From a virus, in the IMG/VR virus record IMGVR_UViG_3300044638_008494, positions 1-64,000 of that record: a DNA stretch of 64,000 nucleotides. One strand, given 5' to 3'. Below are positions 4,869 through 62,847 of this stretch, one piece after another. Below the pieces are notes generated by a model. It did no database searches. It was not told the DNA's origin and was given only the letters and a program-made list of their open reading frames with translations. The position numbers and the translations under genes were made by a program. Numbering within the stretch: the first letter of the stretch is position 1; each line of letters starts with the position of its first letter.

Positions 4869-5533
4869 TGGTTTAATAAGTAAAGTTGTTTTTTTAGAAT
4901 TTGATATGTTAGTTCAACATCATACAAGCCATTGTGAGCAAGGCTTTTATCGTATGGGATGCTGTATTTCTTGCAAAGGTATTCTACTGAAGTTTTAAGA
5001 CCTTTTCTATTAAAAGATTTAAGTTTAAAATTCCAAGCTGCTTGTGATTGACCTTCGGGCTTTTGATATCCAATTTCAATAGCTTTTTCAATATTTTGAA
5101 CATCGTATATTCGTTCAATGTACGAGTAATCACTTTTCTTGCCTAAAGATCTTCGAAAAGTGTTATGTATAAAAATATCAAAACCAATCAGGTTAGCTCC
5201 AGAGATTAAAATGTCTCTATCAAATAAGTATTTCTCAAAGTGTTCAAGAACTTCTTTTGGATCTTCGCTTTTTTGCTTGTATTCGCTATGAATAAAGCCA
5301 GTTATTCTTGCAGCATCTGCAGACATTTTTAAATCTGGCCAGAATGGAAAACGATCATATTCTTCAATTTTTTCATTGCCTTGATAAACACAGTAAGAAA
5401 GTTGCCAAGGTCTGGATGAAAACAAATTCAAGTCCTCAGTTTCAAAATCGAAAATAAGCCATTTTTTATTGTTATCAAATCTTAATAAATTATTAATTTT
5501 ACGAGCCATGAACTTCACCCTTCCATCGTTCAA
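4865..5533 (-). CDS. DEDDh 3'-5' exonuclease (DnaQ/epsilon-like)
   Basis: ExoI IFDFETE, ExoII GANLIGFD, ExoIII HNGLYD. Confidence 0.9.
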   Translation of the reverse strand: MNDGRVKFMARKINNLLRFDNNKKWLIFDFETEDLNLFSSRPWQLSYCVYQGNEKIEEYDRFPFWPDLKMSADAARITGFIHSEYKQKSEDPKEVLEHFEKYLFDRDILISGANLIGFDIFIHNTFRRSLGKKSDYSYIERIYDVQNIEKAIEIGYQKPEGQSQAAWNFKLKSFNRKGLKTSVEYLCKKYSIPYDKSLAHNGLYDVELTYQILKKQLYLLNQ

Positions 5534-15041: not shown

Positions 15042-17477
15042 TTATTGAGCGTACGGACGAATTCTTTTTGCTATTTCCACGCCTGGCTCAGAAGTTGAAG
15101 GAACATTTACGTCTGAGAAAATTTGTCCTCTTTTTTGGGCAATTTTTTGCTTTAATTTTTGCATTTTGTGCCATTTTCTATTCTTTTTATTTGCATTTGG
15201 CAAAACTTTATCAACAAGCTGGCGTATTCTTAAGTTAAGCTCTTTTCCTGCCTTGATTTTTGAAATTGTTTTTGACTCTGAAGCGCTCGGGCCAGAAGAG
15301 TATGCTTTGTATGTTAGTTTTGCCCCATCATTTGGAGGTGTGATATTGTGACGATATGGGTATCTTTTTTGATATGTTCCTCTGTCACTAGCAGTATGTT
15401 TTGGGAACAGTTTGTGTGCGCCAACAGCACTTACACCAGTCTGCAAAGCACTATCAATACTATCAAGAGATCCATAGCCGCTGTAAATAAGCGATAAGTT
15501 TCCGCCATTAGTTCCTACTTCGGTGTTTAATTTTGTTGTTATAATTTCAATTGCATAATATGCGCCGCTAGGAATAATACCATTCCATGTTCCTGTGGCC
15601 ATTGATTTGCCAAAAATTTCATTATCATACAATTGATTATAAAATTTGTAAAAATAAGTATCTTTTAATGGCTCATCTTGTTTTAAGTGACCATTTGACG
15701 ATATGGATTTTTTATAACCAGTAGCAGTTTCCATTGGAATTTGAATTCCAGACTGCAATACTTGCTCATATGTTATTTGTTTACCATCAATAATATATCC
15801 ACTTTTTTGAACATACGTTCCTGAACTAATGGCTTTTGTTATTCCAATGCCAGAGCTTGTATTATCTCCAATTGATAAAAATATTCCCCCTACAACTCTG
15901 CCATTTACAATACTCGCGCCAGAGAATAAAAATACTGGCCCAATATATTCGCTAGGCATTGGCGCAAAATAACTTTCTCCTTGTTGCCTTGGGCCATTCC
16001 AAGATGGCACCGCTGCTCTCTGGTACGTGTATGGAACATTGACCTGAATTCCTTCTGGAAGTACGTTTCCATTGGCAAAGTTTTCACTATCAATAAATAG
16101 CGTTGGGGCTTGGAATGCTAGCGTTGTAACACGCTTATCTTTGCGGCACACTGATTTTCCGCCAATTAATGGTTTTTTCACAGCTGCTCTTTGCAAGTCA
16201 GCAGATGATGCTGCGCGAGGGTGTCCGCTTGCAACAGCCCAGGGTCCTTGCAATCTTCTTGGATCTGTTTTTTTCCAATCACCAAATGAAGATGGTTGAT
16301 GCACATAAATAACTCCAAGTTGTCCGCTGTTAGCTCTTTGATTGACATTTAATCTTCCGCTTATTGCAATGCACCATGCTCCAGAACCATATTGGGTAGA
16401 TACTGTATTATCAAAATAAATTTGTTTGCGAGAGTCTGTGGTGTTGACAAATCTTTTATATACTGGGTTTTCGGAGCCTAATGCAGCTTCGCTATATTCC
16501 CCATTGACGTTATTAATCCATCCGCTTTGCACACAATGATTGATCCATCCTTGTCCTGATGCTGGGTTATACCATGAACTATTACTTATGGTGAGTTGAT
16601 TTGCTGAAAATTGAGATTTTAATACATTTTGTTTGTATTCTTCTGTATAAACATCTTCTAATGAATTTGAATATCCAGTTTCTAATCCGTGTGGGCTAAC
16701 ATAGCATATTTGCTTATAATCGGCTGTTCCTGTAGAAATAACGATCAGCCCTTTTACATTCGTTGGTCCTTGTGTGGCGATTTTTGTAGGAAAATTATAC
16801 CCACCGCCTTGATAAAAATTAATTGTTGTTGGGTATGGAATGTTGAATCCAGTCAAGTTTGTATTATCATAAACAGATTTTTCTTTTCCTTGTCCAAATC
16901 TTGTTAATGCTGGGTGCCACCGGTAATATGTTTTTCTACTTTCTTCTCTGGAAATAGTTCCTGCAAATTTTGGTCTAAAGTTTAGGTCCCCAGATGTTCC
17001 AGCAATTCTAATATCAATAGTATTTGATGTTTGTTCAGGAAATCTTAATCTAGCAAATGGAAATTTATTATTTTGAAATGTTAATTTTGAATTTTGTTTG
17101 TGGTCAAATGGTTTGAAAAAATCGTTTTCTTGGTATGGGTAGTTATCACGAGAAAAAACAAAGTCTCTTAATTGACCGACAAGGTTCGTCTTTAATTTGC
17201 ATGAAGAATAAAAATGGTCTGATTCGACGGCCATTCTCCATGTTTGAAGGGTTTTGCTTTCTACTGTTGGAGATATGTACGAATTAATTTCTTTTCTTAT
17301 AACTGCTTTTGGGTTTCTTGATTTTAAAGTCCCAACGTTTTCCAAATCAACATAAGCGTCTTTAATTCCAAATACGCTGGTTTTATTAAGATCTGTAAAT
17401 CCAAGATCTTCACTGACGGCAATGTTGCCACCAAGCCCAAGTTTTCTGGCCTGCTCTTTTGTTAACTGTGTTGACAT
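15042..17477 (-). CDS. large hypothetical protein, probably virion-associated
   Basis: 811-aa ORF rich in SG/TG dipeptides like the tail proteins; basic C-terminus. Confidence 0.7.
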   Translation of the reverse strand: MSTQLTKEQARKLGLGGNIAVSEDLGFTDLNKTSVFGIKDAYVDLENVGTLKSRNPKAVIRKEINSYISPTVESKTLQTWRMAVESDHFYSSCKLKTNLVGQLRDFVFSRDNYPYQENDFFKPFDHKQNSKLTFQNNKFPFARLRFPEQTSNTIDIRIAGTSGDLNFRPKFAGTISREESRKTYYRWHPALTRFGQGKEKSVYDNTNLTGFNIPYPTTINFYQGGGYNFPTKIATQGPTNVKGLIVISTGTADYKQICYVSPHGLETGYSNSLEDVYTEEYKQNVLKSQFSANQLTISNSSWYNPASGQGWINHCVQSGWINNVNGEYSEAALGSENPVYKRFVNTTDSRKQIYFDNTVSTQYGSGAWCIAISGRLNVNQRANSGQLGVIYVHQPSSFGDWKKTDPRRLQGPWAVASGHPRAASSADLQRAAVKKPLIGGKSVCRKDKRVTTLAFQAPTLFIDSENFANGNVLPEGIQVNVPYTYQRAAVPSWNGPRQQGESYFAPMPSEYIGPVFLFSGASIVNGRVVGGIFLSIGDNTSSGIGITKAISSGTYVQKSGYIIDGKQITYEQVLQSGIQIPMETATGYKKSISSNGHLKQDEPLKDTYFYKFYNQLYDNEIFGKSMATGTWNGIIPSGAYYAIEIITTKLNTEVGTNGGNLSLIYSGYGSLDSIDSALQTGVSAVGAHKLFPKHTASDRGTYQKRYPYRHNITPPNDGAKLTYKAYSSGPSASESKTISKIKAGKELNLRIRQLVDKVLPNANKKNRKWHKMQKLKQKIAQKRGQIFSDVNVPSTSEPGVEIAKRIRPYAQ

Positions 17478-17512
17478 ATTTTTTTAGAATGTTTAAAACT
17501 TTAAAAACTTTA

Positions 17513-17647
17513 ATCCGGTGGGTCTATCATTCTTGCAGGTGCACTTCGCTCGCTCAGGCTTCTCGATCTGGTAGCCGTGGCTCCAGGCTGAGTTTACTTC
17601 CAAACGGACCCTCTCGGTTACACTTGCATGCTAGACAGACAGACCGC
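17513..17647 (-). ncRNA. 135-nt GC-rich structured RNA following the ribozyme omega-G
   Basis: 75/135 G+C in an AT-rich genome; ends pair (GGUCUGUC/GAUAGACC, UGCAAGUGUA/UGCACCUGCA) with internal hairpins. Confidence 0.6.
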
Positions 17648-17928
17648 CAATTGTGTTATCGTACAGTTGTTTATACCATACATCTATATATTTCTATATA
17701 GTTCAGACTATATCTTGGTACCAGAAATTAATCTGGCACACCGGGCGCTCTTGGGCAGTTTTATTGTTGGGACTCAACCGCCTAGTCGTTACACCTTCTA
17801 TCCTATCTTTCCCAGATAGCTTGGCTCGGTATTGTCTTTTCGGCGTTTTTACACGCCAACGAAGGTATCCACCGAATTCACCCAGTAAGGACTGTTGTTA
17901 TAAATTTTTAAAAGAACTTGAACAAGTT
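17648..17928 (-). ncRNA. group I intron/ribozyme (IA-like, ORF-less)
   Basis: P3 ACUGGGUG/CGCCCGGU; P GAAUUCGGUGG; Q AAUACCGAGCCAAG; R GGUGUAACGACUA; S AAGAUAUAGUC; P7.1 GGCGGU/ACUGCC; P8 GUGCCAGA/UCUGGUAC; P9 with GAAA loop; ends AUAACACAAUUG. Confidence 0.9.
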
Positions 17929-17981
17929 ATCCTGTTCACAATATGATTACATCTTAATTTTAAGAATATCCAAAAAAAATT

Positions 17982-18179
17982 TTATCTTTTTTCAAAAGCC
18001 CAGCAATAATGACAAATTTCTGGGGTTACTTTAAATATATCGCGTTTAAAGCATTTATAGCCATTATCCGTATAGTCGCCACCTTGACAGCTGCATCTAT
18101 GAACTGTCACACTTTCTTCGTTTTCAGACCTGTATTTGCAGTTTGAAAATTTATACTCAGCTGATAGGTTTTCTTCCAT
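17982..18179 (-). CDS. small Cys-rich protein
   Basis: 65 aa with several Cys (CSC, CHYC). Confidence 0.6.
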   Translation of the reverse strand: MEENLSAEYKFSNCKYRSENEESVTVHRCSCQGGDYTDNGYKCFKRDIFKVTPEICHYCWAFEKR

Positions 18180-18187
18180 ATTTACTT

Positions 18188-19237
18188 TTACACCTCCAAA
18201 TCGTTAAAAACCATTTCTTCTATTAGAGAATCAAAAGAAATTTTTGGACGCCATCCAAGCTCTTTTTTTGCAGTTTCTGGATTGCCGAGTAATAAATCTA
18301 CTTCAGCTGGTCTGTAAAACTTTTCATTAATTTTTACCAATACTTTCTGGTCATAATAAATTGAATTAGTAGTTTTTTTGAGCAAAAATTTTTCTTCTAA
18401 TTCACCACCTGCCCATTCACCAACGATCCCACATTTACGAAATGCTATTTCAATAAACTCTTTAACAGTGTGCGTTTCGCCAGATGCCAACAAATATTCT
18501 CTAGGATTTTCTTGATTCAGCATCATCCAAATTCCTTCTACAAAATCTTTGGCATGGCTCCAGTCTCTTTTAGCATAAATATTTCCAAGCTCAAGTGGCT
18601 CTATAAAATCCTTGCCAAGATCTAGATCTTTTTTAATTCTGGCTATATGTTTAGTAATTTTTCTAGTTACAAATTCCTCTCCGCGCCTTGGGCTTTCGTG
18701 ATTATATAATAAGCCTTGAATTGCAAAAAGGTTATAGCTTTCTCGATATACTTTAACAATATGTCGCGCAGCGGCTTTGGCTGCCCCATATGGACTTCTT
18801 GGCTTTAATGGATGATTTTCATCTTGTGGGCTGTAGTCTACATCGCCAAGCTCTTCTGAAGATCCTGCATTATAAAACCTGCAAGATGGCGCATGTTTTC
18901 TAACGGCCTCTAAACAGCGTATAACGCCCACAGCATCTATTTCAAATGTTTGTTCGGGTATTTGCCATGATGCTCCAACAAAACTTTGTGCACCTAAATT
19001 AATAAAATAATCCGGCTTTATTTCTCTAACAATATTATCTATAGATTGTGAATCGGAAAGATCACCTGTGATAATTTCAAATCTTGGATGGTCGATTATA
19101 TGCTCTATATTTTTATAATTTTTTGTAGAGCTTCTTCGAACCATGCCATATATTTTATAATCTGTATTTGCAAGAAGATGATCAGCCATATAGCTGCCAT
19201 CTTGTCCGGTTACGCCTGTGATAATAACAGATTTCAT
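18188..19237 (-). CDS. gmd: GDP-mannose 4,6-dehydratase
   Basis: ITGVTGQDGSY, AQSFV, SSEE, PRSPYGAAK, NHESPRRGEEFVTRKI, RDWSHA, RPAEVDLL. Confidence 0.96.
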   Translation of the reverse strand: MKSVIITGVTGQDGSYMADHLLANTDYKIYGMVRRSSTKNYKNIEHIIDHPRFEIITGDLSDSQSIDNIVREIKPDYFINLGAQSFVGASWQIPEQTFEIDAVGVIRCLEAVRKHAPSCRFYNAGSSEELGDVDYSPQDENHPLKPRSPYGAAKAAARHIVKVYRESYNLFAIQGLLYNHESPRRGEEFVTRKITKHIARIKKDLDLGKDFIEPLELGNIYAKRDWSHAKDFVEGIWMMLNQENPREYLLASGETHTVKEFIEIAFRKCGIVGEWAGGELEEKFLLKKTTNSIYYDQKVLVKINEKFYRPAEVDLLLGNPETAKKELGWRPKISFDSLIEEMVFNDLEV

Positions 19238-20037
19238 AAAATGAACTCTTTAAATTTTTCTATATTTTCTACAATATATGCAGGATGTGTAGTGTTGTCT
19301 AATTTAATTTTATTTAAAGTTTTACCATCAGATGTTAAATTTTCTGTTTTGATAAAAAAATGGTTATTTAATTTTCTATATTGGTCAAAAAATTTTATAA
19401 AATCTTCCCTTGATGGAAGCTCAGACTTGTCGAGCGGCTCTATGCATGATCTTGACTTTTTCCAAGCCGCCTCTGCCCCACCAAGCCAACTAAAATGCCA
19501 ACCGCCATCTGCTATTCTTGTTGGTATATCGTCTTTGTGATTTCTTACATTTTGTGGTGATATATTTTTTAATAAAGAATACTTTATAGCAACGCTACCA
19601 ATCCAGTTAGAATTTATGCTTTTTAAATTGAGAAAATATGCATAAAAATCCTGCTCAAATGATGCCATGCGAAAATTTGGATCATTAAAAATATCAAATT
19701 TTTTAGGATTCGGCACCTCATCTAAATCTGAAATAATTACAATATCGCTGTCGCTTATATTTGAAAAGCCCCTTCTAATGCAATTTCTCTGATGGTTCTC
19801 CATTTCCCAAAGATTATTTTTATTATCTGGATAATCTTCAACTTTGATATGGATTATTTTATCTGCAAATTTAGAAAATCTATGCTTATTTTCTTCAAAA
19901 TAAAACGGCTTATCAATAAGGCTTTGTGTTTTTCCCGCCTCTACGATAATAAATTTTTCTACATATTTGTTTAGAGTATTTAGTCGTATATCTAGCAAGT
20001 CTAGCTCATTAAAAAACGTAAAACAATCATAAATCAT
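19234..20037 (-). CDS. glycosyltransferase family 17-like
   Basis: YDCFTFFNELDLL.IRL, E..QRN, ISDLDEVP, GGWHFSW. Confidence 0.88.
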   Translation of the reverse strand: MIYDCFTFFNELDLLDIRLNTLNKYVEKFIIVEAGKTQSLIDKPFYFEENKHRFSKFADKIIHIKVEDYPDNKNNLWEMENHQRNCIRRGFSNISDSDIVIISDLDEVPNPKKFDIFNDPNFRMASFEQDFYAYFLNLKSINSNWIGSVAIKYSLLKNISPQNVRNHKDDIPTRIADGGWHFSWLGGAEAAWKKSRSCIEPLDKSELPSREDFIKFFDQYRKLNNHFFIKTENLTSDGKTLNKIKLDNTTHPAYIVENIEKFKEFIL

Positions 20038-21633: not shown

Positions 21634-21644
21634 ATTACATTTTA

Positions 21645-32681: not shown

Positions 32682-33758
32682 TTATTTAATATTTTCTAGT
32701 ATTAGATTGGTTGTTTTTTCCCATGTAAACTGTTCTTGTAGTTTCAAGCCAGCTTTATTTACTGGGTTGGATTTTGCTTTTTCAATAGCAACATCACATG
32801 CATCTAAAAATTCATCTACCGAGAAATCAAAAATATTTCCTTGATTAAAGGGCTGCCCTTCTCTGAAGAACATATTGTCATAGGCTGGCGTCTTTCCGTT
32901 TGGAGTTATACAAATGGTATTTTCATCAGTCATCCATTCTTTATAACCATGAGCTTTTAATCCAATGCAATGCTTTCCAAGGGCAACAGATGTAAATTCT
33001 GGTAGCCCCCATGTCTCTCCACCAGACATTGCTATCATAACGTGATTGGCATTTAAGAATTTATTATAATCTTCTTGCTTTTCCATCCATGGCAAAAAGT
33101 TTATATTGAAGAATCTCTTACCTTCAAGAGCCTGACCAATCATTGCGCTTTGATCTTCTTGTTTGAGAAAATTGTTATAAATAGCACAGTTTAAAAATAC
33201 ATCATGTCGATTGCCATATTTTTTTGCCCAAGCGTTTAATATTTTTAGATGGTGTTTTCTTTTTTCTAGCTTACCTGCTAGGCCAAAACAAATTCTATTA
33301 TCGGGATAATTAACATTGCTTACACTAAATGAGCTTGCATCGAATCCTAATGGAATAGTTTTGCATTTGATATCAAAGCTAGAAAACAAATCCGTATAAT
33401 GACTAGATGGAACAAAAACCATTTCTTGATTTTTTAATATATTAAGCTCTCTGGATGTCGGACTATCAAGTTCATAGAACGTATACAAATATTGCTTTTC
33501 AGAATAACTTTCCATACTTCCCATAATATGCCAAAGCTTGACAACTGGGGTATTTCTTGAGTGCAACTCTTCAGCCTTTATTGAATTTTCAACAATCCAT
33601 TTTACAAAACCCTGCTCTTTTTCAAGCATGCTATGGTCTGGCTGGCCAATATGAAAAATGTTTGGCTTTATATCTTTTTTATAGATTTCTCTGGCAATAT
33701 TATTTGAGCATTGCCCCAAACTTGTTTTGTTAAATGGAAAATGTAAAGAAAATTTCAT
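32682..33758 (-). CDS. GT4-like (GT-B) glycosyltransferase
   Basis: VPSS, PLGFD, GKLEKRK, GETWGLP, FTW. Confidence 0.85.
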   Translation of the reverse strand: MKFSLHFPFNKTSLGQCSNNIAREIYKKDIKPNIFHIGQPDHSMLEKEQGFVKWIVENSIKAEELHSRNTPVVKLWHIMGSMESYSEKQYLYTFYELDSPTSRELNILKNQEMVFVPSSHYTDLFSSFDIKCKTIPLGFDASSFSVSNVNYPDNRICFGLAGKLEKRKHHLKILNAWAKKYGNRHDVFLNCAIYNNFLKQEDQSAMIGQALEGKRFFNINFLPWMEKQEDYNKFLNANHVMIAMSGGETWGLPEFTSVALGKHCIGLKAHGYKEWMTDENTICITPNGKTPAYDNMFFREGQPFNQGNIFDFSVDEFLDACDVAIEKAKSNPVNKAGLKLQEQFTWEKTTNLILENIK

Positions 33759-33763
33759 AAACG

Positions 33764-33792
33764 ATAATATGCTTTGTATAAAAAAAATCTAA
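33764..33792 (-). promoter_or_regulatory. promoter with TATTAT -10, 5 nt before ATG
   Basis: TAGATT or TTAGAT at 16/17 spacing from TATTAT. Confidence 0.45.
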
Positions 33793-33821
33793 AAAAAAAT
33801 AGGCCCAAAAGGGCCTATTTT
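33791..33821 (-). terminator. intrinsic terminator after the ssb-like gene
   Basis: AAAATAGGCCC-AAAA-GGGCCTATTTT hairpin followed by a long U tract on the minus strand. Confidence 0.8.
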
Positions 33822-33840
33822 CATTAATTTACAACAATAA

Positions 33841-34134
33841 TCAAAACGGAATATCGTCGTTGTTAGACTCAACCTCATCATTTTGAGGTTTAGATGCCTT
33901 GCCTCCACCATCTTTTGCTGAAGAAGGTTTTAATGCCTCTTCTAGCTCAGAAAGAACTAGCCTATAATCTGGTTGATTTGGCTTTGTCTTATTATTCTTG
34001 AAGATAAATGCAGTATAATCATTACTGCCTATCTTTACCTTTCCAGATAGAAAGGTCTTTCCATTTTTTTCTTTTTTCCAGAAAGCTCCAATATCGGTTA
34101 GATCAGAGTTTCTATTTTCTGTATTTGTGCTCAT
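33841..34134 (-). CDS. DUF736-like ssDNA-binding protein with SSB C-terminal tail
   Basis: IGAFWK..FLSG..N..K..NQPDYR; acidic tail ending DDIPF. Confidence 0.75.
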   Translation of the reverse strand: MSTNTENRNSDLTDIGAFWKKEKNGKTFLSGKVKIGSNDYTAFIFKNNKTKPNQPDYRLVLSELEEALKPSSAKDGGGKASKPQNDEVESNNDDIPF

Positions 34135-34137
34135 AAA

Positions 34138-34743
34138 TTATAATATATCCATTGTTGTTGATGATTTCAATTTATTTCTTAAAAAGTCTATAAATTTATC
34201 ATGCCAGTTTACGACTGTTTGCGTAGATACTCCAAAATGGTCTGCTATTTGTTTGAATGTTTTTACTTTTTGTCCGCTGGAAAAATATCTCATTTTAATT
34301 ACTTCTTTTGCTGTTTCATCAGATGACAGATCTATAATGTCTTCGATATATTGAAGTATCTCCTTGTCTTTTTGGATGAGATCATTCTGTGCGGCAAAAT
34401 GATTGTCAGTTAAATAGTTTAGGATATCATCATTTAAATTTGTGTATTTCTTATTAGCATTGCATGCGTTTAGGCATGCGTATGTAATAACGTTACCGAG
34501 CCATGTAGAAAATTTTGTCCCACAAGAAGGATCGAATGTTTTTGCTGCATGGTAAATTAAAGAGTCTTTTTGCTCTTCTACATCCCTAGCGATTGTAGAA
34601 GTATTGTTGTAAAAATACTTATTATATATCTTGTAACAAATACCTGAATGTCTAGATATTAGCACGTTTAGCGCATCTGAGTTTTCATCTGATTTTACCT
34701 TAGTTATCAATTCTTGATCGTCTATAAATTTATCTGTTTCCAT
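34138..34743 (-). CDS. phage RNA polymerase sigma factor (sigma70 family, regions 2 and 4)
   Basis: FDPSCGTKFSTW (region 2), TFKQIADHFGVSTQTV HTH (region 4). Confidence 0.88.
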   Translation of the reverse strand: METDKFIDDQELITKVKSDENSDALNVLISRHSGICYKIYNKYFYNNTSTIARDVEEQKDSLIYHAAKTFDPSCGTKFSTWLGNVITYACLNACNANKKYTNLNDDILNYLTDNHFAAQNDLIQKDKEILQYIEDIIDLSSDETAKEVIKMRYFSSGQKVKTFKQIADHFGVSTQTVVNWHDKFIDFLRNKLKSSTTMDIL

Positions 34744-34749
34744 AAGTTG

Positions 34750-34778
34750 ATGTTATACAATATTTTATTCTGAGTCTA
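34750..34778 (-). promoter_or_regulatory. promoter TAGACT-17-TAACAT, 6 nt before sigma ATG
   Basis: Hexamer similarity and spacing. Confidence 0.45.
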
Positions 34779-34900
34779 TTTAAAAAATATAAAAACGCAA
34801 AGCGTTTTTGCGGCTTTGCCGCATTCTTTTTTCTCAATAAACATTATTTATTAATAACATGTTTTTTTAGAAAAGTCAATATTATTTTATATAATCGGAT

Positions 34901-35266
34901 ATGTTAGAAAATATAGTAATCACCTGCTTTGTAATATCCATTATACAGTATTATATGTATATGACAAATGTAATTTGGGAATATTTAAACTTGTTATCGA
35001 AAATTATAAAAATTCCTAAATTTTTTGAAGGCACAATGCTTATTAGCGCTGCAAAGCTAGAGCCAAATTATTTAATGTTTATTAATTCAGTATATAATAA
35101 CTTTTTTACAAAATTAATTTCATGCCCTATATGTACAGGGTTTTGGATGTCTGTTATTGCATCATTATTGCTTGGTAATATACTTTTATTCGGGCCAATA
35201 GCTTACGTATCATTATGTCTTTATTTTTCAATAAAACTTTTGACAAATAGATCCTATAGAATATAA
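34901..35266 (+). CDS. small membrane protein with CPIC motif (DUF1360-like)
   Basis: Hydrophobic segments, LISCPICTGFW. Confidence 0.65.
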   Translation: MLENIVITCFVISIIQYYMYMTNVIWEYLNLLSKIIKIPKFFEGTMLISAAKLEPNYLMFINSVYNNFFTKLISCPICTGFWMSVIASLLLGNILLFGPIAYVSLCLYFSIKLLTNRSYRI

Positions 35267-35267
35267 T
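35240..35267 (+). promoter_or_regulatory. consensus promoter TTGACA-16-TATAAT, 5 nt before ATG
   Basis: Both hexamers perfect. Confidence 0.75.
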
Positions 35268-35272
35268 CGTTC

Positions 35273-35755
35273 ATGCAAAAATCTTTATCTTTTTACAAGC
35301 CAAATAGCTACAATAAAGGATCTGCTGGTCAGTTCCAATATGGAGCAAAAGACGGCGATTTTGGATTATATGTCAGCATAGTTAAACAGGCTGCATGGAA
35401 TACAGATACAAAAAGGGGGTCTTTTTCTGAAAACGCTAAGAATCCATCTAAAAATAAGAAAATAAAACTTAACGCTACAGAAGCTGCGGCTATGTCTAGG
35501 GTTATCTTGTGTGATGTTGACAAGTGGTCTAGCGTTCATAGAAGTGAATCCAAAACAACATCTATAATGTTTTCTCACTATATAAAGGATAATGCCAAAC
35601 TAGGGTATGGATTTTCTATATCAGAAAAGGATGGGGAATCATTCATGCTCAGTTTAAATAATGACGAGGGCTATGTTTTAAAGAATTTTCTTGAAGAATA
35701 TATCAAATTCACATTTAATAAGCAGCAACTTAATACACAACAAGAAAAGTTTTAA
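35273..35755 (+). CDS. hypothetical, possible Whirly/PC4-like nucleic-acid-binding fold
   Basis: Two repeats of beta strands followed by L...E helix (KIKLNATEAAAM; MLSLNNDEGYVL); fold is inference. Confidence 0.45.
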   Translation: MQKSLSFYKPNSYNKGSAGQFQYGAKDGDFGLYVSIVKQAAWNTDTKRGSFSENAKNPSKNKKIKLNATEAAAMSRVILCDVDKWSSVHRSESKTTSIMFSHYIKDNAKLGYGFSISEKDGESFMLSLNNDEGYVLKNFLEEYIKFTFNKQQLNTQQEKF

Positions 35756-37707
35756 TGAGAAAGAAAAGAGTTTTGTTTTTAACTGACTATTCCGGAGTAA
35801 ATACCGGTTTTGGTAAAAATATAAAATTACTATTATCGTATTTATATAAAACCAATAAATACGAATTATTTCACGCCGCATGTGGAGTCGGAGATAATAA
35901 TCCAGAATTTGAACGCTTTCCTTGGAAAACTATTGGAGTCATACCAAATGATCAGGCATTTATTCAAAAAATGCAGCAAGATCAGCATTTCGCTCGAATT
36001 GCCAGCTATGGAGAGCCACAGATAGCAAAGATTGTAGAAGAAACAAAGCCAGATGTGGTATTTGCCATTCAAGATAGTTGGGGGGCGCTATTTGTTGCTG
36101 ACAAGCCATTCTTCAAAAGAATTCCAACAGTTTGCTGGATTACTTTTGATAGCTTGCCATTATTGCAAGATACCATTGATAAAGCAGACAAGATCCAGAA
36201 CTACTGGACATGGTCTGATTTTGCAGAGCATGAATTTCATAGATTGGGATTCAAGCATGTTAAAACGCAATATCCATTAACAAACACTGACCATTTCTAT
36301 CCAATAAGTAACGAAGATAAGTTTAATATTAGAAAAAGGTTTGGAATATCTCAAGATTGCACTATTTTTGGTTTTGTTTTTAGAAATCAATTGCGAAAAT
36401 TAGTTGGCACCTTGATAGCTGGATATGCAGAATTTTTAAAGCATAATCCCGATATGGTAAACAAATCAAAACTACTTCTTCACACCCATTTCGGAGAAGG
36501 ATGGGATATAATGAGATTTGTTAAACAATACAACATACCATTTGAAAATATACTTTGCACATATGTTTGTAAAGAAACAAAACAATATTTTATACATCCG
36601 TATGTAGGCCAAGATGTCGAAAATCCTATTACAAAAAATAAAACTCTCATCACTGCAAACGTTTCAATCGGAGTTACTGATGCTCAATTAAACGAGATTT
36701 ACAACATAATGGATGCATATCTACACCCTGCCACCTCTGGGGCGTGCGAAATTCCTATTGTTGAAGCTGCGCTAACTGAAAAGATAGTATCCACATGTGA
36801 TTATTCTTTTGGGTGGAATGTAGTCAACCATAATAAAGGCTGTATCCCTATGGAGTATTCATTTTACAATGAACCTCCTATGGGATCAAATACGCAGTTT
36901 TTAAAATCTCAACCATTCCCCTCTTCTGTGGCAAAAATAATGAAAAAAATTTGCGAAATGAAAACGCAAAAGAGAAGAGAAATGGAGATGGCGTCTAGAA
37001 AATGGGCTTTAGAAAACTATTCGGTTGATGTAAATGGTAGCAAAATAGAGGCATTTATTGATAGTCAAAATCTTATTGAAGATGAGAATGCATGGCTTGA
37101 TAAAGAAGACAAAAAAATAAATCCAAATGTTCAAATTGAAAATATCCAAGATAACTTGCAATGGATTGTTCAACTTTACAACAAAATATTAGATGCTCAT
37201 CCTGATAATAATGATGACGGCGTAAAACATTGGATGACTCAATTGGAAAGGGGCATGCCTAGAGAAAATATAGAAAAATATTTTAGAGATATTGCCAATA
37301 AGGACATGCAAAAAGAAGAGAAATCTTCTTCCTTAGAAGATCTGTTTGATAAAGATGATAAGGCAAACAAATTGAAAAGATTGCTAATAGTTCAGCCGCA
37401 AAGTGCTGGTGACATATTTTTAGTAACGGCACTTTTGGAATCCTTGAGATTAAAATTTCAATCAGATAAGTGGAAAATTTACTTTGCGTGTGACCCAAAA
37501 TTTGCAGATATTTTATTCGGAAATCAAAATATAGACAAAATTATCCCATATCATCAAATTATGGATAATCAAATTGCAATGGAGGGTCACGGCGATCATC
37601 TTGGTTATGTTGATATATGTTTAAATCCATATTTTTCAACACAAAGACTTTTAAATTATACCCACAATGGATATAGTATTTGTCAATTTGATAATAAACT
37701 TAATTAA
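35755..37707 (+). CDS. fusion: GT4-like glycosyltransferase + DUF4214-like helical domain + GT9 N-terminal domain
   Basis: TGFG..RNQLRK..EIPIVEA (GT4); LYNKIL..PD...G..HW..L..G (DUF4214); QSAGDIFL.TALL..N.NIDKII (GT9-N). Confidence 0.8.
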   Translation: MRKKRVLFLTDYSGVNTGFGKNIKLLLSYLYKTNKYELFHAACGVGDNNPEFERFPWKTIGVIPNDQAFIQKMQQDQHFARIASYGEPQIAKIVEETKPDVVFAIQDSWGALFVADKPFFKRIPTVCWITFDSLPLLQDTIDKADKIQNYWTWSDFAEHEFHRLGFKHVKTQYPLTNTDHFYPISNEDKFNIRKRFGISQDCTIFGFVFRNQLRKLVGTLIAGYAEFLKHNPDMVNKSKLLLHTHFGEGWDIMRFVKQYNIPFENILCTYVCKETKQYFIHPYVGQDVENPITKNKTLITANVSIGVTDAQLNEIYNIMDAYLHPATSGACEIPIVEAALTEKIVSTCDYSFGWNVVNHNKGCIPMEYSFYNEPPMGSNTQFLKSQPFPSSVAKIMKKICEMKTQKRREMEMASRKWALENYSVDVNGSKIEAFIDSQNLIEDENAWLDKEDKKINPNVQIENIQDNLQWIVQLYNKILDAHPDNNDDGVKHWMTQLERGMPRENIEKYFRDIANKDMQKEEKSSSLEDLFDKDDKANKLKRLLIVQPQSAGDIFLVTALLESLRLKFQSDKWKIYFACDPKFADILFGNQNIDKIIPYHQIMDNQIAMEGHGDHLGYVDICLNPYFSTQRLLNYTHNGYSICQFDNKLN

Positions 37708-62806: not shown

Positions 62807-62847
62807 CTTTAAAAACCTTTTACCTTACATGGTATTACACCATAAAA

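Follow-up and report, generated by a model that had tools for sequence, protein, structure and literature searches.

A group I ribozyme that interrupts no gene was analyzed in a 64,000-nucleotide (nt) stretch of DNA, hereafter the window, which covers positions 1 to 64,000 of the IMG/VR virus record IMGVR_UViG_3300044638_008494. It is encoded on the minus strand, between a Cys-rich open reading frame (ORF) of 65 amino acids (aa) at 18179-17982 and an ORF of 811 aa at 17477-15042. As judged from its sequence, the element is a genuine free-standing group I ribozyme without an ORF, and it is phage td/Twort-like with a P7.1/P7.2 insert. Its conserved P1 helix is the one formed with a strand downstream of the core, shortly before the start codon of the 811-aa gene; both the anatomy and the covariation among relatives strongly support this. 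It is probable that the ribozyme cuts the message free at this downstream site (17513/17512; a slash denotes a reactive bond or a splice junction throughout) and then closes the 135-nt spacer lying between its own 3' end and the site into a circle.

The ribozyme core and the downstream P1 strand

The group I model RF00028 of Rfam matched the minus strand at 17937-17684 over its full length (model positions 1-253), with 69.9 bits against a cut-off of 50 and an E value of 1e-15. This is the sole copy in the virus record of 107 kb. The Rfam model ends at the P9 hairpin (17684), and the similarity to Clostridium phage phiCP13O (NC_019506) continues via P9.1 to around position 17650. In the tape-measure intron of phiCP13O, exon 2 begins directly after ...GAUAACAAAAUG. 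The homologous residue in the window is G17648, which aligns with the phiCP13O 3' splice site and is thus the terminal omega-G. P9 is at 17701-17684 and P9.1 at 17681-17661, and the tail GAUAACACAAUUG closes with the omega-G. The core contains neither P2 nor an ORF. An original prediction, made from the letters of the window, had described a free-standing ORF-less group I core with omega-G at 17648, without P2 and without an interrupted gene, and had proposed a search with group I models. The search agrees with that description, and all the coordinates given there were confirmed on the minus strand by a sequence check.

A group I intron is recognized by an interrupted gene, an upstream 5' splice site and a restored RNA. 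Here no reading frame, tRNA or rRNA is broken. In the reading-frame list of the window no ORF runs across the element, the tRNA check found no tRNA at the element, and no Rfam family other than RF00028 was found within 17300-18200 at E values up to 10.

With two pattern scans of IMG/VR, the family sample rose to about 26 distinct free-standing copies from uncultured phages. Alignments and counts were made over 26 copies, and pair tests between guide and site over the 25 testable ones. Because the copies are related to each other, simple binomial odds exaggerate their independence; the number of changes on the tree and the permutation test, both given below, are more reliable. In the 26-copy alignment, the J3/4, J8/7 and P7 strands are invariant, and the 3' UG is present in 26/26 copies, partly by construction, as the omega-G in relatives was placed by a motif rule. 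RNAalifold predicted 41 pairs for the 26 copies, and 23 of them have compensatory changes on both sides. The nearest lineage, L002 (L003, L004 and L051 are identical to it), has the same ribozyme at the same position. Between the window and L002, identity is 94% in the core, 57% in the spacer, 54% in the leader and 48% in the 811-aa protein. Because the core is 94% identical against 48% for the protein, and because 23 of the 41 pairs are compensated, the core is more than a chance resemblance and is under selection.

The internal guide GUCCU is located at 17892-17888, just 5' of P3. In every copy the guide G is found 9 nt (once 10 nt) before the GGGUG of P3. In a P1 helix, the guide is paired with a strand whose last letter is U, and U.G is at the reactive bond; such a helix is formed with the downstream strand. 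The original prediction that the guide binds the distal end of the structured RNA downstream (GGAU/U, 17516-17512) is supported by covariation in relatives, which it had suggested as a check and which is clear for the downstream site. A site NNNU/N that fits the copy's own guide is present at most 45 nt before the start codon in 24/26 copies, against a shuffle expectation of 0.24. The two exceptions are L133, where the site is present and the ORF is farther off, and L175, which is degenerate. In a test at the fixed site, the four core pairs are formed in 25/25 copies and the +1 pair in 24/25. When guides were permuted among the copies, the mean number of fully paired copies was 11.3 and the maximum 18; none of 20000 permutations reached 24.

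The pairs at the site change in type. AU, GC, CG and UA pairs are seen at position -2; GC, CG, AU and GU at -3; GC, AU and UA at -4; and UA, AU and GC at +1. No pairs are formed at -5, -6 and +2. At the reactive position, U.G is invariant (25/25). In group I RNAs, a U.G wobble surrounded by covarying pairs is the sign of a reactive 5' splice site and not of mere pairing. Since the wobble is invariant while the flanking pairs covary, the downstream strand is likely to be a reactive 5' splice site rather than one side of a plain helix. A maximum-likelihood core tree calls for at least 13 changes of guide class. Sister copies have different guides: GUCC in the window and GCGU in L002, GACC in L150a and GCCA in L150b, and GUCC in L054 and GACC in L073.

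Two points of procedure concern these counts. A control in which foreign guides could pair at any position gave 0.46 and was too permissive because G.U is tolerated; it was replaced by the fixed-site and permutation tests. MAFFT left the sites in separate columns, as the spacer lengths differ, and the pair counts were therefore computed in Python.

Predicted reactions and alternative explanations

Transcription would start at a promoter-like box upstream of the ribozyme, and the mRNA of the 811-aa gene would have the ribozyme as its 5' portion. P1 is split, with the guide (A)GUCC (17893-17889) 5' of the core and the substrate GGAU/U 135 nt past the omega-G and 35 nt before the ATG. In the first step, free guanosine or GTP is predicted to attack after U17513, giving an mRNA that begins G+UAAAG..., with a non-templated G and an A/U-rich leader of 35 nt. 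The invariant U.G amid covarying pairs supports this step, because plain pairing would not keep the wobble. In the second step, the 3'-OH of U17513 would attack after the omega-G at 17648, generating a 135-nt circle with the junction CCGGAU/GCGGUC and freeing the linear ribozyme. Support for this step comes from the retention of the omega-G, the pairing of the spacer ends, and the circularization of engineered constructs with the same order.

The order is permuted, as the 3' splice site lies 5' of the 5' splice site in one transcript. In a classical permuted intron-exon (PIE) arrangement, split ribozyme halves flank the exon. Here the core is undivided and precedes the spacer, with the P1 loop as the only break; the layout is of the STS type, not the classical PIE type. 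The original prediction of a back-splice layout, with a 135-nt circle and a 35-nt leader, is what standard group I chemistry predicts for this order, and the ends of the spacer indeed pair in its predicted fold. It had also pointed out that AU/G at either junction opens a 31-codon ORF, possibly by chance. The ORF exists (31 codons by manual count). It requires AU at the end of the site and G at the start of the spacer, a combination confined to the window; relatives have AU/U, GU/A, CU/G and others. Because only the window has it, the ORF is treated as a chance occurrence, which fits the caution of the original prediction.

The minimum-energy fold of the spacer has -45.6 kcal/mol, with z of -2.2 and paired ends. 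In the window the omega-G (17648) precedes the site (17513) by 135 nt, and the order is the same in every relative, where the spacer measures 60-140 nt. In minimum-energy folds, the spacer ends are paired next to the omega-G and the site in 17/26 copies, versus 4.5 expected from shuffles. This test replaced a strict measure of the closing stem as a contiguous run, which was uninformative (own 3.0 versus cross 2.3). The spacers of the window and L002 have the blocks CCGAGAGG, GAAGUAAACUCAGCCU and GAGAAGCC in common. The potential for P10 is modestly enriched in the family (2.08 versus 1.21), and the P10 of L141 has 8 base pairs (bp). No Rfam family was found in the spacer. True matches to its 15-mer GAAGTAAACTCAGCC are limited to the L002 lineage, and 42 other matches in IMG/VR are chance matches. 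A search with a 27-mer from the intron tail found the same three contigs only. The short motif AGUAAACU or GUAACUC is common to the spacers of the window, L116, L144 and L165, which are otherwise unrelated. Such common motifs could touch the ribozyme core, or could have a function in the circle.

The 5' end of the transcript is suggested by the box. On the minus strand of the window, TGTAAT is located at 17951-17946. Among the copies, 22/26 have TGTAA followed by A, T or C upstream of the guide, and in 17 copies (A)GTTCTT comes exactly 8 nt after it. Ahead of most copies, a rigid module is observed, RGTGTAAW + 8 nt + (A)GTTCTTT. Further GGTGTAAT or AGTGTAAT boxes are found in minus-strand intergenic gaps of the window, at 1613-1620, 21634-21641 and 62834-62841; over the whole window, the box motif is not enriched. 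The module may represent a class of phage promoter. In the distant relative L054, which also holds the ribozyme, the gene upstream is divergent, and therefore the RNA must begin just before the ribozyme. The 20-nt hairpin that follows the box in the window is present only there and in L002; the gap from the box to GTTC is 28-29 nt in these two and 8 nt in the other copies. It comprises 8 bp (17938-17919; GAACAGG with CUUGUUC, plus U-A), and its stem is compensatory relative to L002, which has AGUAG with CUACU. If transcription starts about 8 nt past the box, this hairpin would be the extreme 5' end of the RNA and the upstream "exon" would be about 9 nt long.

Three alternatives to cleavage followed by circularization have to be weighed. 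One is that only the leader is cut: the first step would provide the mRNA with a defined short 5' end, and the circle would be absent in vivo or an unselected by-product. This is consistent with a cut site that tracks the start codon in every copy (leaders of 2-40 nt, mostly 13 nt or less), with the wide variation of the spacers in length and sequence, and with the absence of P10 from the window. Since the spacer is poorly conserved across the family, the circle, if formed, may indeed be a by-product. Points against leader cutting alone are the retention of the omega-G and the preceding tail in 26/26 copies, the frequent pairing of the spacer ends, the long P10 of L141 and the spacer blocks that the window and L002 share. 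In addition, engineered constructs with an intact omega-G carry out the second step without P10 (PMC10457212). Cutting of the leader only is thus considered rather unlikely. Another alternative is that the RNA is non-catalytic or decaying, once an intron and now retained as a structured leader, e.g., for masking of the start codon or for mRNA stability, with the guide-site helix as nothing but long-range pairing. In favor of this, one copy (L175) is degenerate, and another (L122) has a 27-bp helix from the leader to a downstream region and no guide G. However, J8/7, the P7 strands and J3/4 are invariant in 26 diverged copies whose helices covary, and the U.G of the site does not change while its neighbors do, although pairing alone needs no such wobble. 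A non-catalytic RNA is therefore quite improbable.

The third alternative is the central claim of the original prediction, that two 5' splice sites, AGGAU at 17933-17929 and GGAU at 17516-17513, compete for the guide and switch the mRNA. Splicing would keep a long leader, and back-splicing would give a short leader and a circle. In the window, the guide pairs with both sites about equally (-5.7 kcal/mol upstream and -5.3 kcal/mol downstream), the hairpin that holds the upstream site could in principle open, and the Clostridioides difficile c-di-GMP-II ribozyme, with its alternative GTP attack sites, is reportedly a precedent. The upstream strand is, however, held in a hairpin whose opening costs 8.2 kcal/mol. 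An upstream site that fits the copy's own guide is seen in 6/26 copies, which corresponds to the chance rate of 0.24 as obtained by shuffling a somewhat shorter stretch (48 nt versus 67 nt). L002 keeps the hairpin without a counterpart of AGGAU, most other copies likewise lack such a counterpart, and most copies lack the hairpin itself. No aptamer or other sensor and no further Rfam family was found within 17300-18200. What was predicted of AGGAU stands as regards its position in an 8-bp hairpin and its match to the guide, and does not stand as regards its role as a second 5' splice site. It is best read, from the sequence comparison, as a chance match in the hairpin and not as a second regulated site. 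A switch of this kind appears very improbable.

Several points weigh against cleavage followed by circularization as well. No P10 pair can be formed in the window, and the excess of P10 in the family is only modest. The sequence of the spacer is poorly conserved, and the conservation of the 3' UG is in part a product of the motif rule. P1 is short, with four pairs plus one. Because the upstream duplex equals the downstream one in energy, some conventional splicing is possible in the window phage alone. We infer the catalysis, and especially the formation of the circle, and the promoter and the transcription start are likewise putative.

For the family as a whole, a tentative possibility is a phage device for gene expression, in which a ribozyme close to the promoter draws on cellular GTP to remake the 5' end of selected mRNAs beside the start codon, combined with a stable small circle that has a function of its own. 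The start codon would be unmasked, and the new end would begin with G, triphosphorylated if GTP is the nucleophile. The circle might serve as a decoy or a protein sponge, and the freed ribozyme might act in trans.

Related copies, neighboring genes and positions of the features

The free-standing copies stand before at least four unrelated gene families. The pattern scans also yielded many conventional relatives in IMG/VR that interrupt ORFs (e.g., L061, L063, L079, L093 and L107). Some phages have two free-standing copies: L054 and L113 on the contig IMGVR_UViG_3300017774_006457, L146 and L163 on 3300022752_000025, and the two L150 copies, which are about 5.5 kb apart. The paired copies in one phage have different guides, and their sites differ to match. 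The genes behind them are paralogous or unrelated.

L175 (7624-7994, minus strand) is the degenerate copy, in which the site is GGCC/A with C replacing U. Within the 150 nt downstream, it has a terminator-like hairpin GCGAGAG...UUCUCGC with a U run, and a second AAGTGTAAT box is found directly before the gene. L175 looks like a natural loss of the coupling between ribozyme and gene, and it would fit cleavage followed by circularization as a natural knock-out. In L122 (minus strand, GGGTGAATTCGGTGGA match at oriented position 4898), about 27 nt of the 5' leader are near-perfectly paired with a region about 180 nt past P7. The paired stretch includes AGUUCUUUCU and the guide region, the usual guide G is absent, and no long ORF follows.

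In a scan of genome contigs for GGGTGAATTCGGTGGA, the P7 motif was present in one of at least 120 matches, and no free-standing copy was found among the matches listed. An Rfam search at the gathering threshold gave no match for L001 to L004, although the ribozyme of L002 is 94% identical to the window ribozyme, which scores 69.9 bits. The miss on L002, L003 and L004 is apparently an effect of the filter and not an absence of the ribozyme, which calls for caution when such scans are used to conclude that a family is missing.

The window is phage-like, and the neighbor genes of the ribozyme are all on one strand. They include DNA polymerase, DnaB-like helicase, UvsX-like recombinase, ribonucleotide reductase and sugar-modifying enzymes (Pfam/PHROG). 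The regions 18188-20037 and 32682-37707 encode GDP-mannose 4,6-dehydratase (PF16363, E 1e-115), a glycosyltransferase family 17-like protein and more glycosyltransferases. The phage appears to carry a gene set for sugar modification. The 65-aa ORF upstream of the ribozyme (17982-18179, minus strand) has CxxC-type pairs and no family match, and its counterpart in L002 is 70 aa long.

For the 811-aa protein, neither a Pfam nor a PHROG family was found, and tblastn against GenBank phage records gave no match. Its AlphaFold model is poor (pLDDT 53), and no fold match was obtained with Foldseek against BFVD and PDB or in the ESM Atlas. Relatives with 31-48% identity are found in IMG/VR and JGI contigs, and homologues with 22-48% identity are preceded by the same ribozyme in other phages.

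The positions of the features are summarized in Table 1. In the window alone, a pairing is possible between the conserved element AGUUCUUUU and AAAAGAGC, which lies in codons 6-8 of the 811-aa gene (17440-17470; -8.0 kcal/mol, z -2.2). Closure of the opened P1 loop by pairing of AGUUCUUU with the early coding region was considered and rejected for the family, with a mean z of 0.1 in 20 copies.

Table 1. Features of the ribozyme locus in the window, in the order of the predicted transcript
Feature	Position	Strand	Basis
Promoter-like box GATGTAAT, family consensus RGTGTAAW	17946..17953	-	Conserved motif; putative promoter
5' hairpin, probable transcript start, holds AGGAU 17933-17929	17919..17938	-	Fold of -8.2 kcal/mol; covaries with L002
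Conserved 5' element AGUUCUUUU	17910..17918	-	Present in 20/26 copies
Internal guide A-GUCC, wobble partner G17892	17889..17893	-	Pairs with the downstream site in 25/25 testable copies, covarying
Ribozyme core: P3, P4-P6, P7.1/P7.2 insert, P8, P7, P9, P9.1 and tail GAUAACACAAUUG	17648..17886	-	Rfam, RNAalifold and phiCP13O homology
Structured spacer, 135 nt, predicted circular product	17513..17647	-	Fold of -45.6 kcal/mol; putative circle
P1 substrate strand GGAU/U; guanosine attack predicted between 17513 and 17512	17512..17516	-	Pairs with AGUCC, -5.3 kcal/mol
A/U-rich leader, 35 nt, would carry an added 5' G after the cut	17478..17512	-	Read from the sequence
811-aa gene; its mRNA would be released by the cut	15042..17477	-	ORF, ATG at 17477

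Comparison with known ribozymes

Bacterial and phage group I RNAs are known as introns, insertions that are either selfish or tolerated. By sequence the window ribozyme belongs with such introns, those of the T4 td/Twort type with a P7.1/P7.2 insert; its nearest sequence relatives among them include the tape-measure intron of phiCP13O and the ORF-interrupting copies in IMG/VR. The core, the helices and the tail ...GAUAAC..UG/ are as in the window; they also have no P2, and the guide is located just before P3. In these conventional relatives, P1 is a hairpin of 7-8 pairs, the exon strand is upstream, and reading frames are interrupted. In the window, by contrast, the exon strand is downstream of the omega-G, none is upstream, and no gene is interrupted. 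The window ribozyme thus appears as an intact group I ribozyme that has been re-wired: it stands alone behind a promoter-like box, and its target strand is shifted to the start codon of the next gene. Compensatory changes have repeatedly preserved this re-wired layout, in many uncultured phages and ahead of several genes that are unrelated to each other.

The full-text literature yielded no group I RNA arranged in this way that is natural to a phage or a bacterium; the only published cases that turned up are engineered RNAs and one intron of coral mitochondria. Constructs engineered from the Tetrahymena ribozyme, in the order guide, ribozyme, target and target site, yield circles; for this, P1 is enough and P10 is not needed (PMC10457212; also Cui et al. 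2023, PMC10415121). These self-targeting constructs resemble the window in having a guide, a whole core, an omega-G, the RNA to be closed and a site ending in U. Guanosine attacks downstream and the ends are then ligated, as is predicted for the window. The constructs are laboratory-made, use an IC1 ribozyme and have no gene downstream, whereas the window element is natural and phage IA2-like, its P1 has 4+1 pairs, and the released fragment would be a protein-coding mRNA cut near its start codon.

Splice sites in swapped order and a circular RNA that contains an exon are also known from a natural group I RNA, the ND5-717 intron of coral mitochondria (2019, PMC6545197). This one is a real intron in a protein gene, and its P8 is interrupted by almost the entire mitochondrial genome. 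The window core, by contrast, is unbroken: it is the P1 loop that is opened, and a short non-coding spacer takes the place of the "exon". Circularly permuted bacterial group II ribozymes also have reversed splice sites, with an excised circle of 15-86 nt and no ORF (Roth et al. 2021, PMC8637638). They belong to another ribozyme class, give a branched product and are not placed at start codons.

The window resembles two other systems in the fate of the mRNA leader. As Lee et al. reportedly described in 2010, Clostridioides difficile has a c-di-GMP-II riboswitch joined to a group I ribozyme, and the choice of the guanosine attack site sets the mRNA leader. In that system, a neighboring aptamer controls a conventional intron, and two sites are in use; the window has no aptamer, and its one conserved site is downstream of the omega-G. 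The lariat-capping ribozyme GIR1 of twin-ribozyme introns, which is eukaryotic, is located upstream of an ORF, and its cleavage makes the 5' end of the mRNA. It catalyzes a branching reaction and has lost P1 and the guanosine-attack mechanism. The likeness to the window is that a group I-derived ribozyme stands before an ORF and, as predicted for the window, sets the 5' end of its mRNA. The Rfam model of GIR1 gave no match at the window, and P1 with U.G and the omega-G are retained there.

If the predicted reactions are true, the window ribozyme and its relatives would be the first natural case of group I back-splicing in bacteria or phages and a natural source of small circular RNA. They would be a compact natural counterpart of the layouts used in circular-RNA engineering, with a P1 of 4-5 bp. 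The 5' end of an mRNA would be made by a ribozyme in a prokaryotic system, with a logic comparable only to that of the eukaryotic lariat-capping ribozyme.

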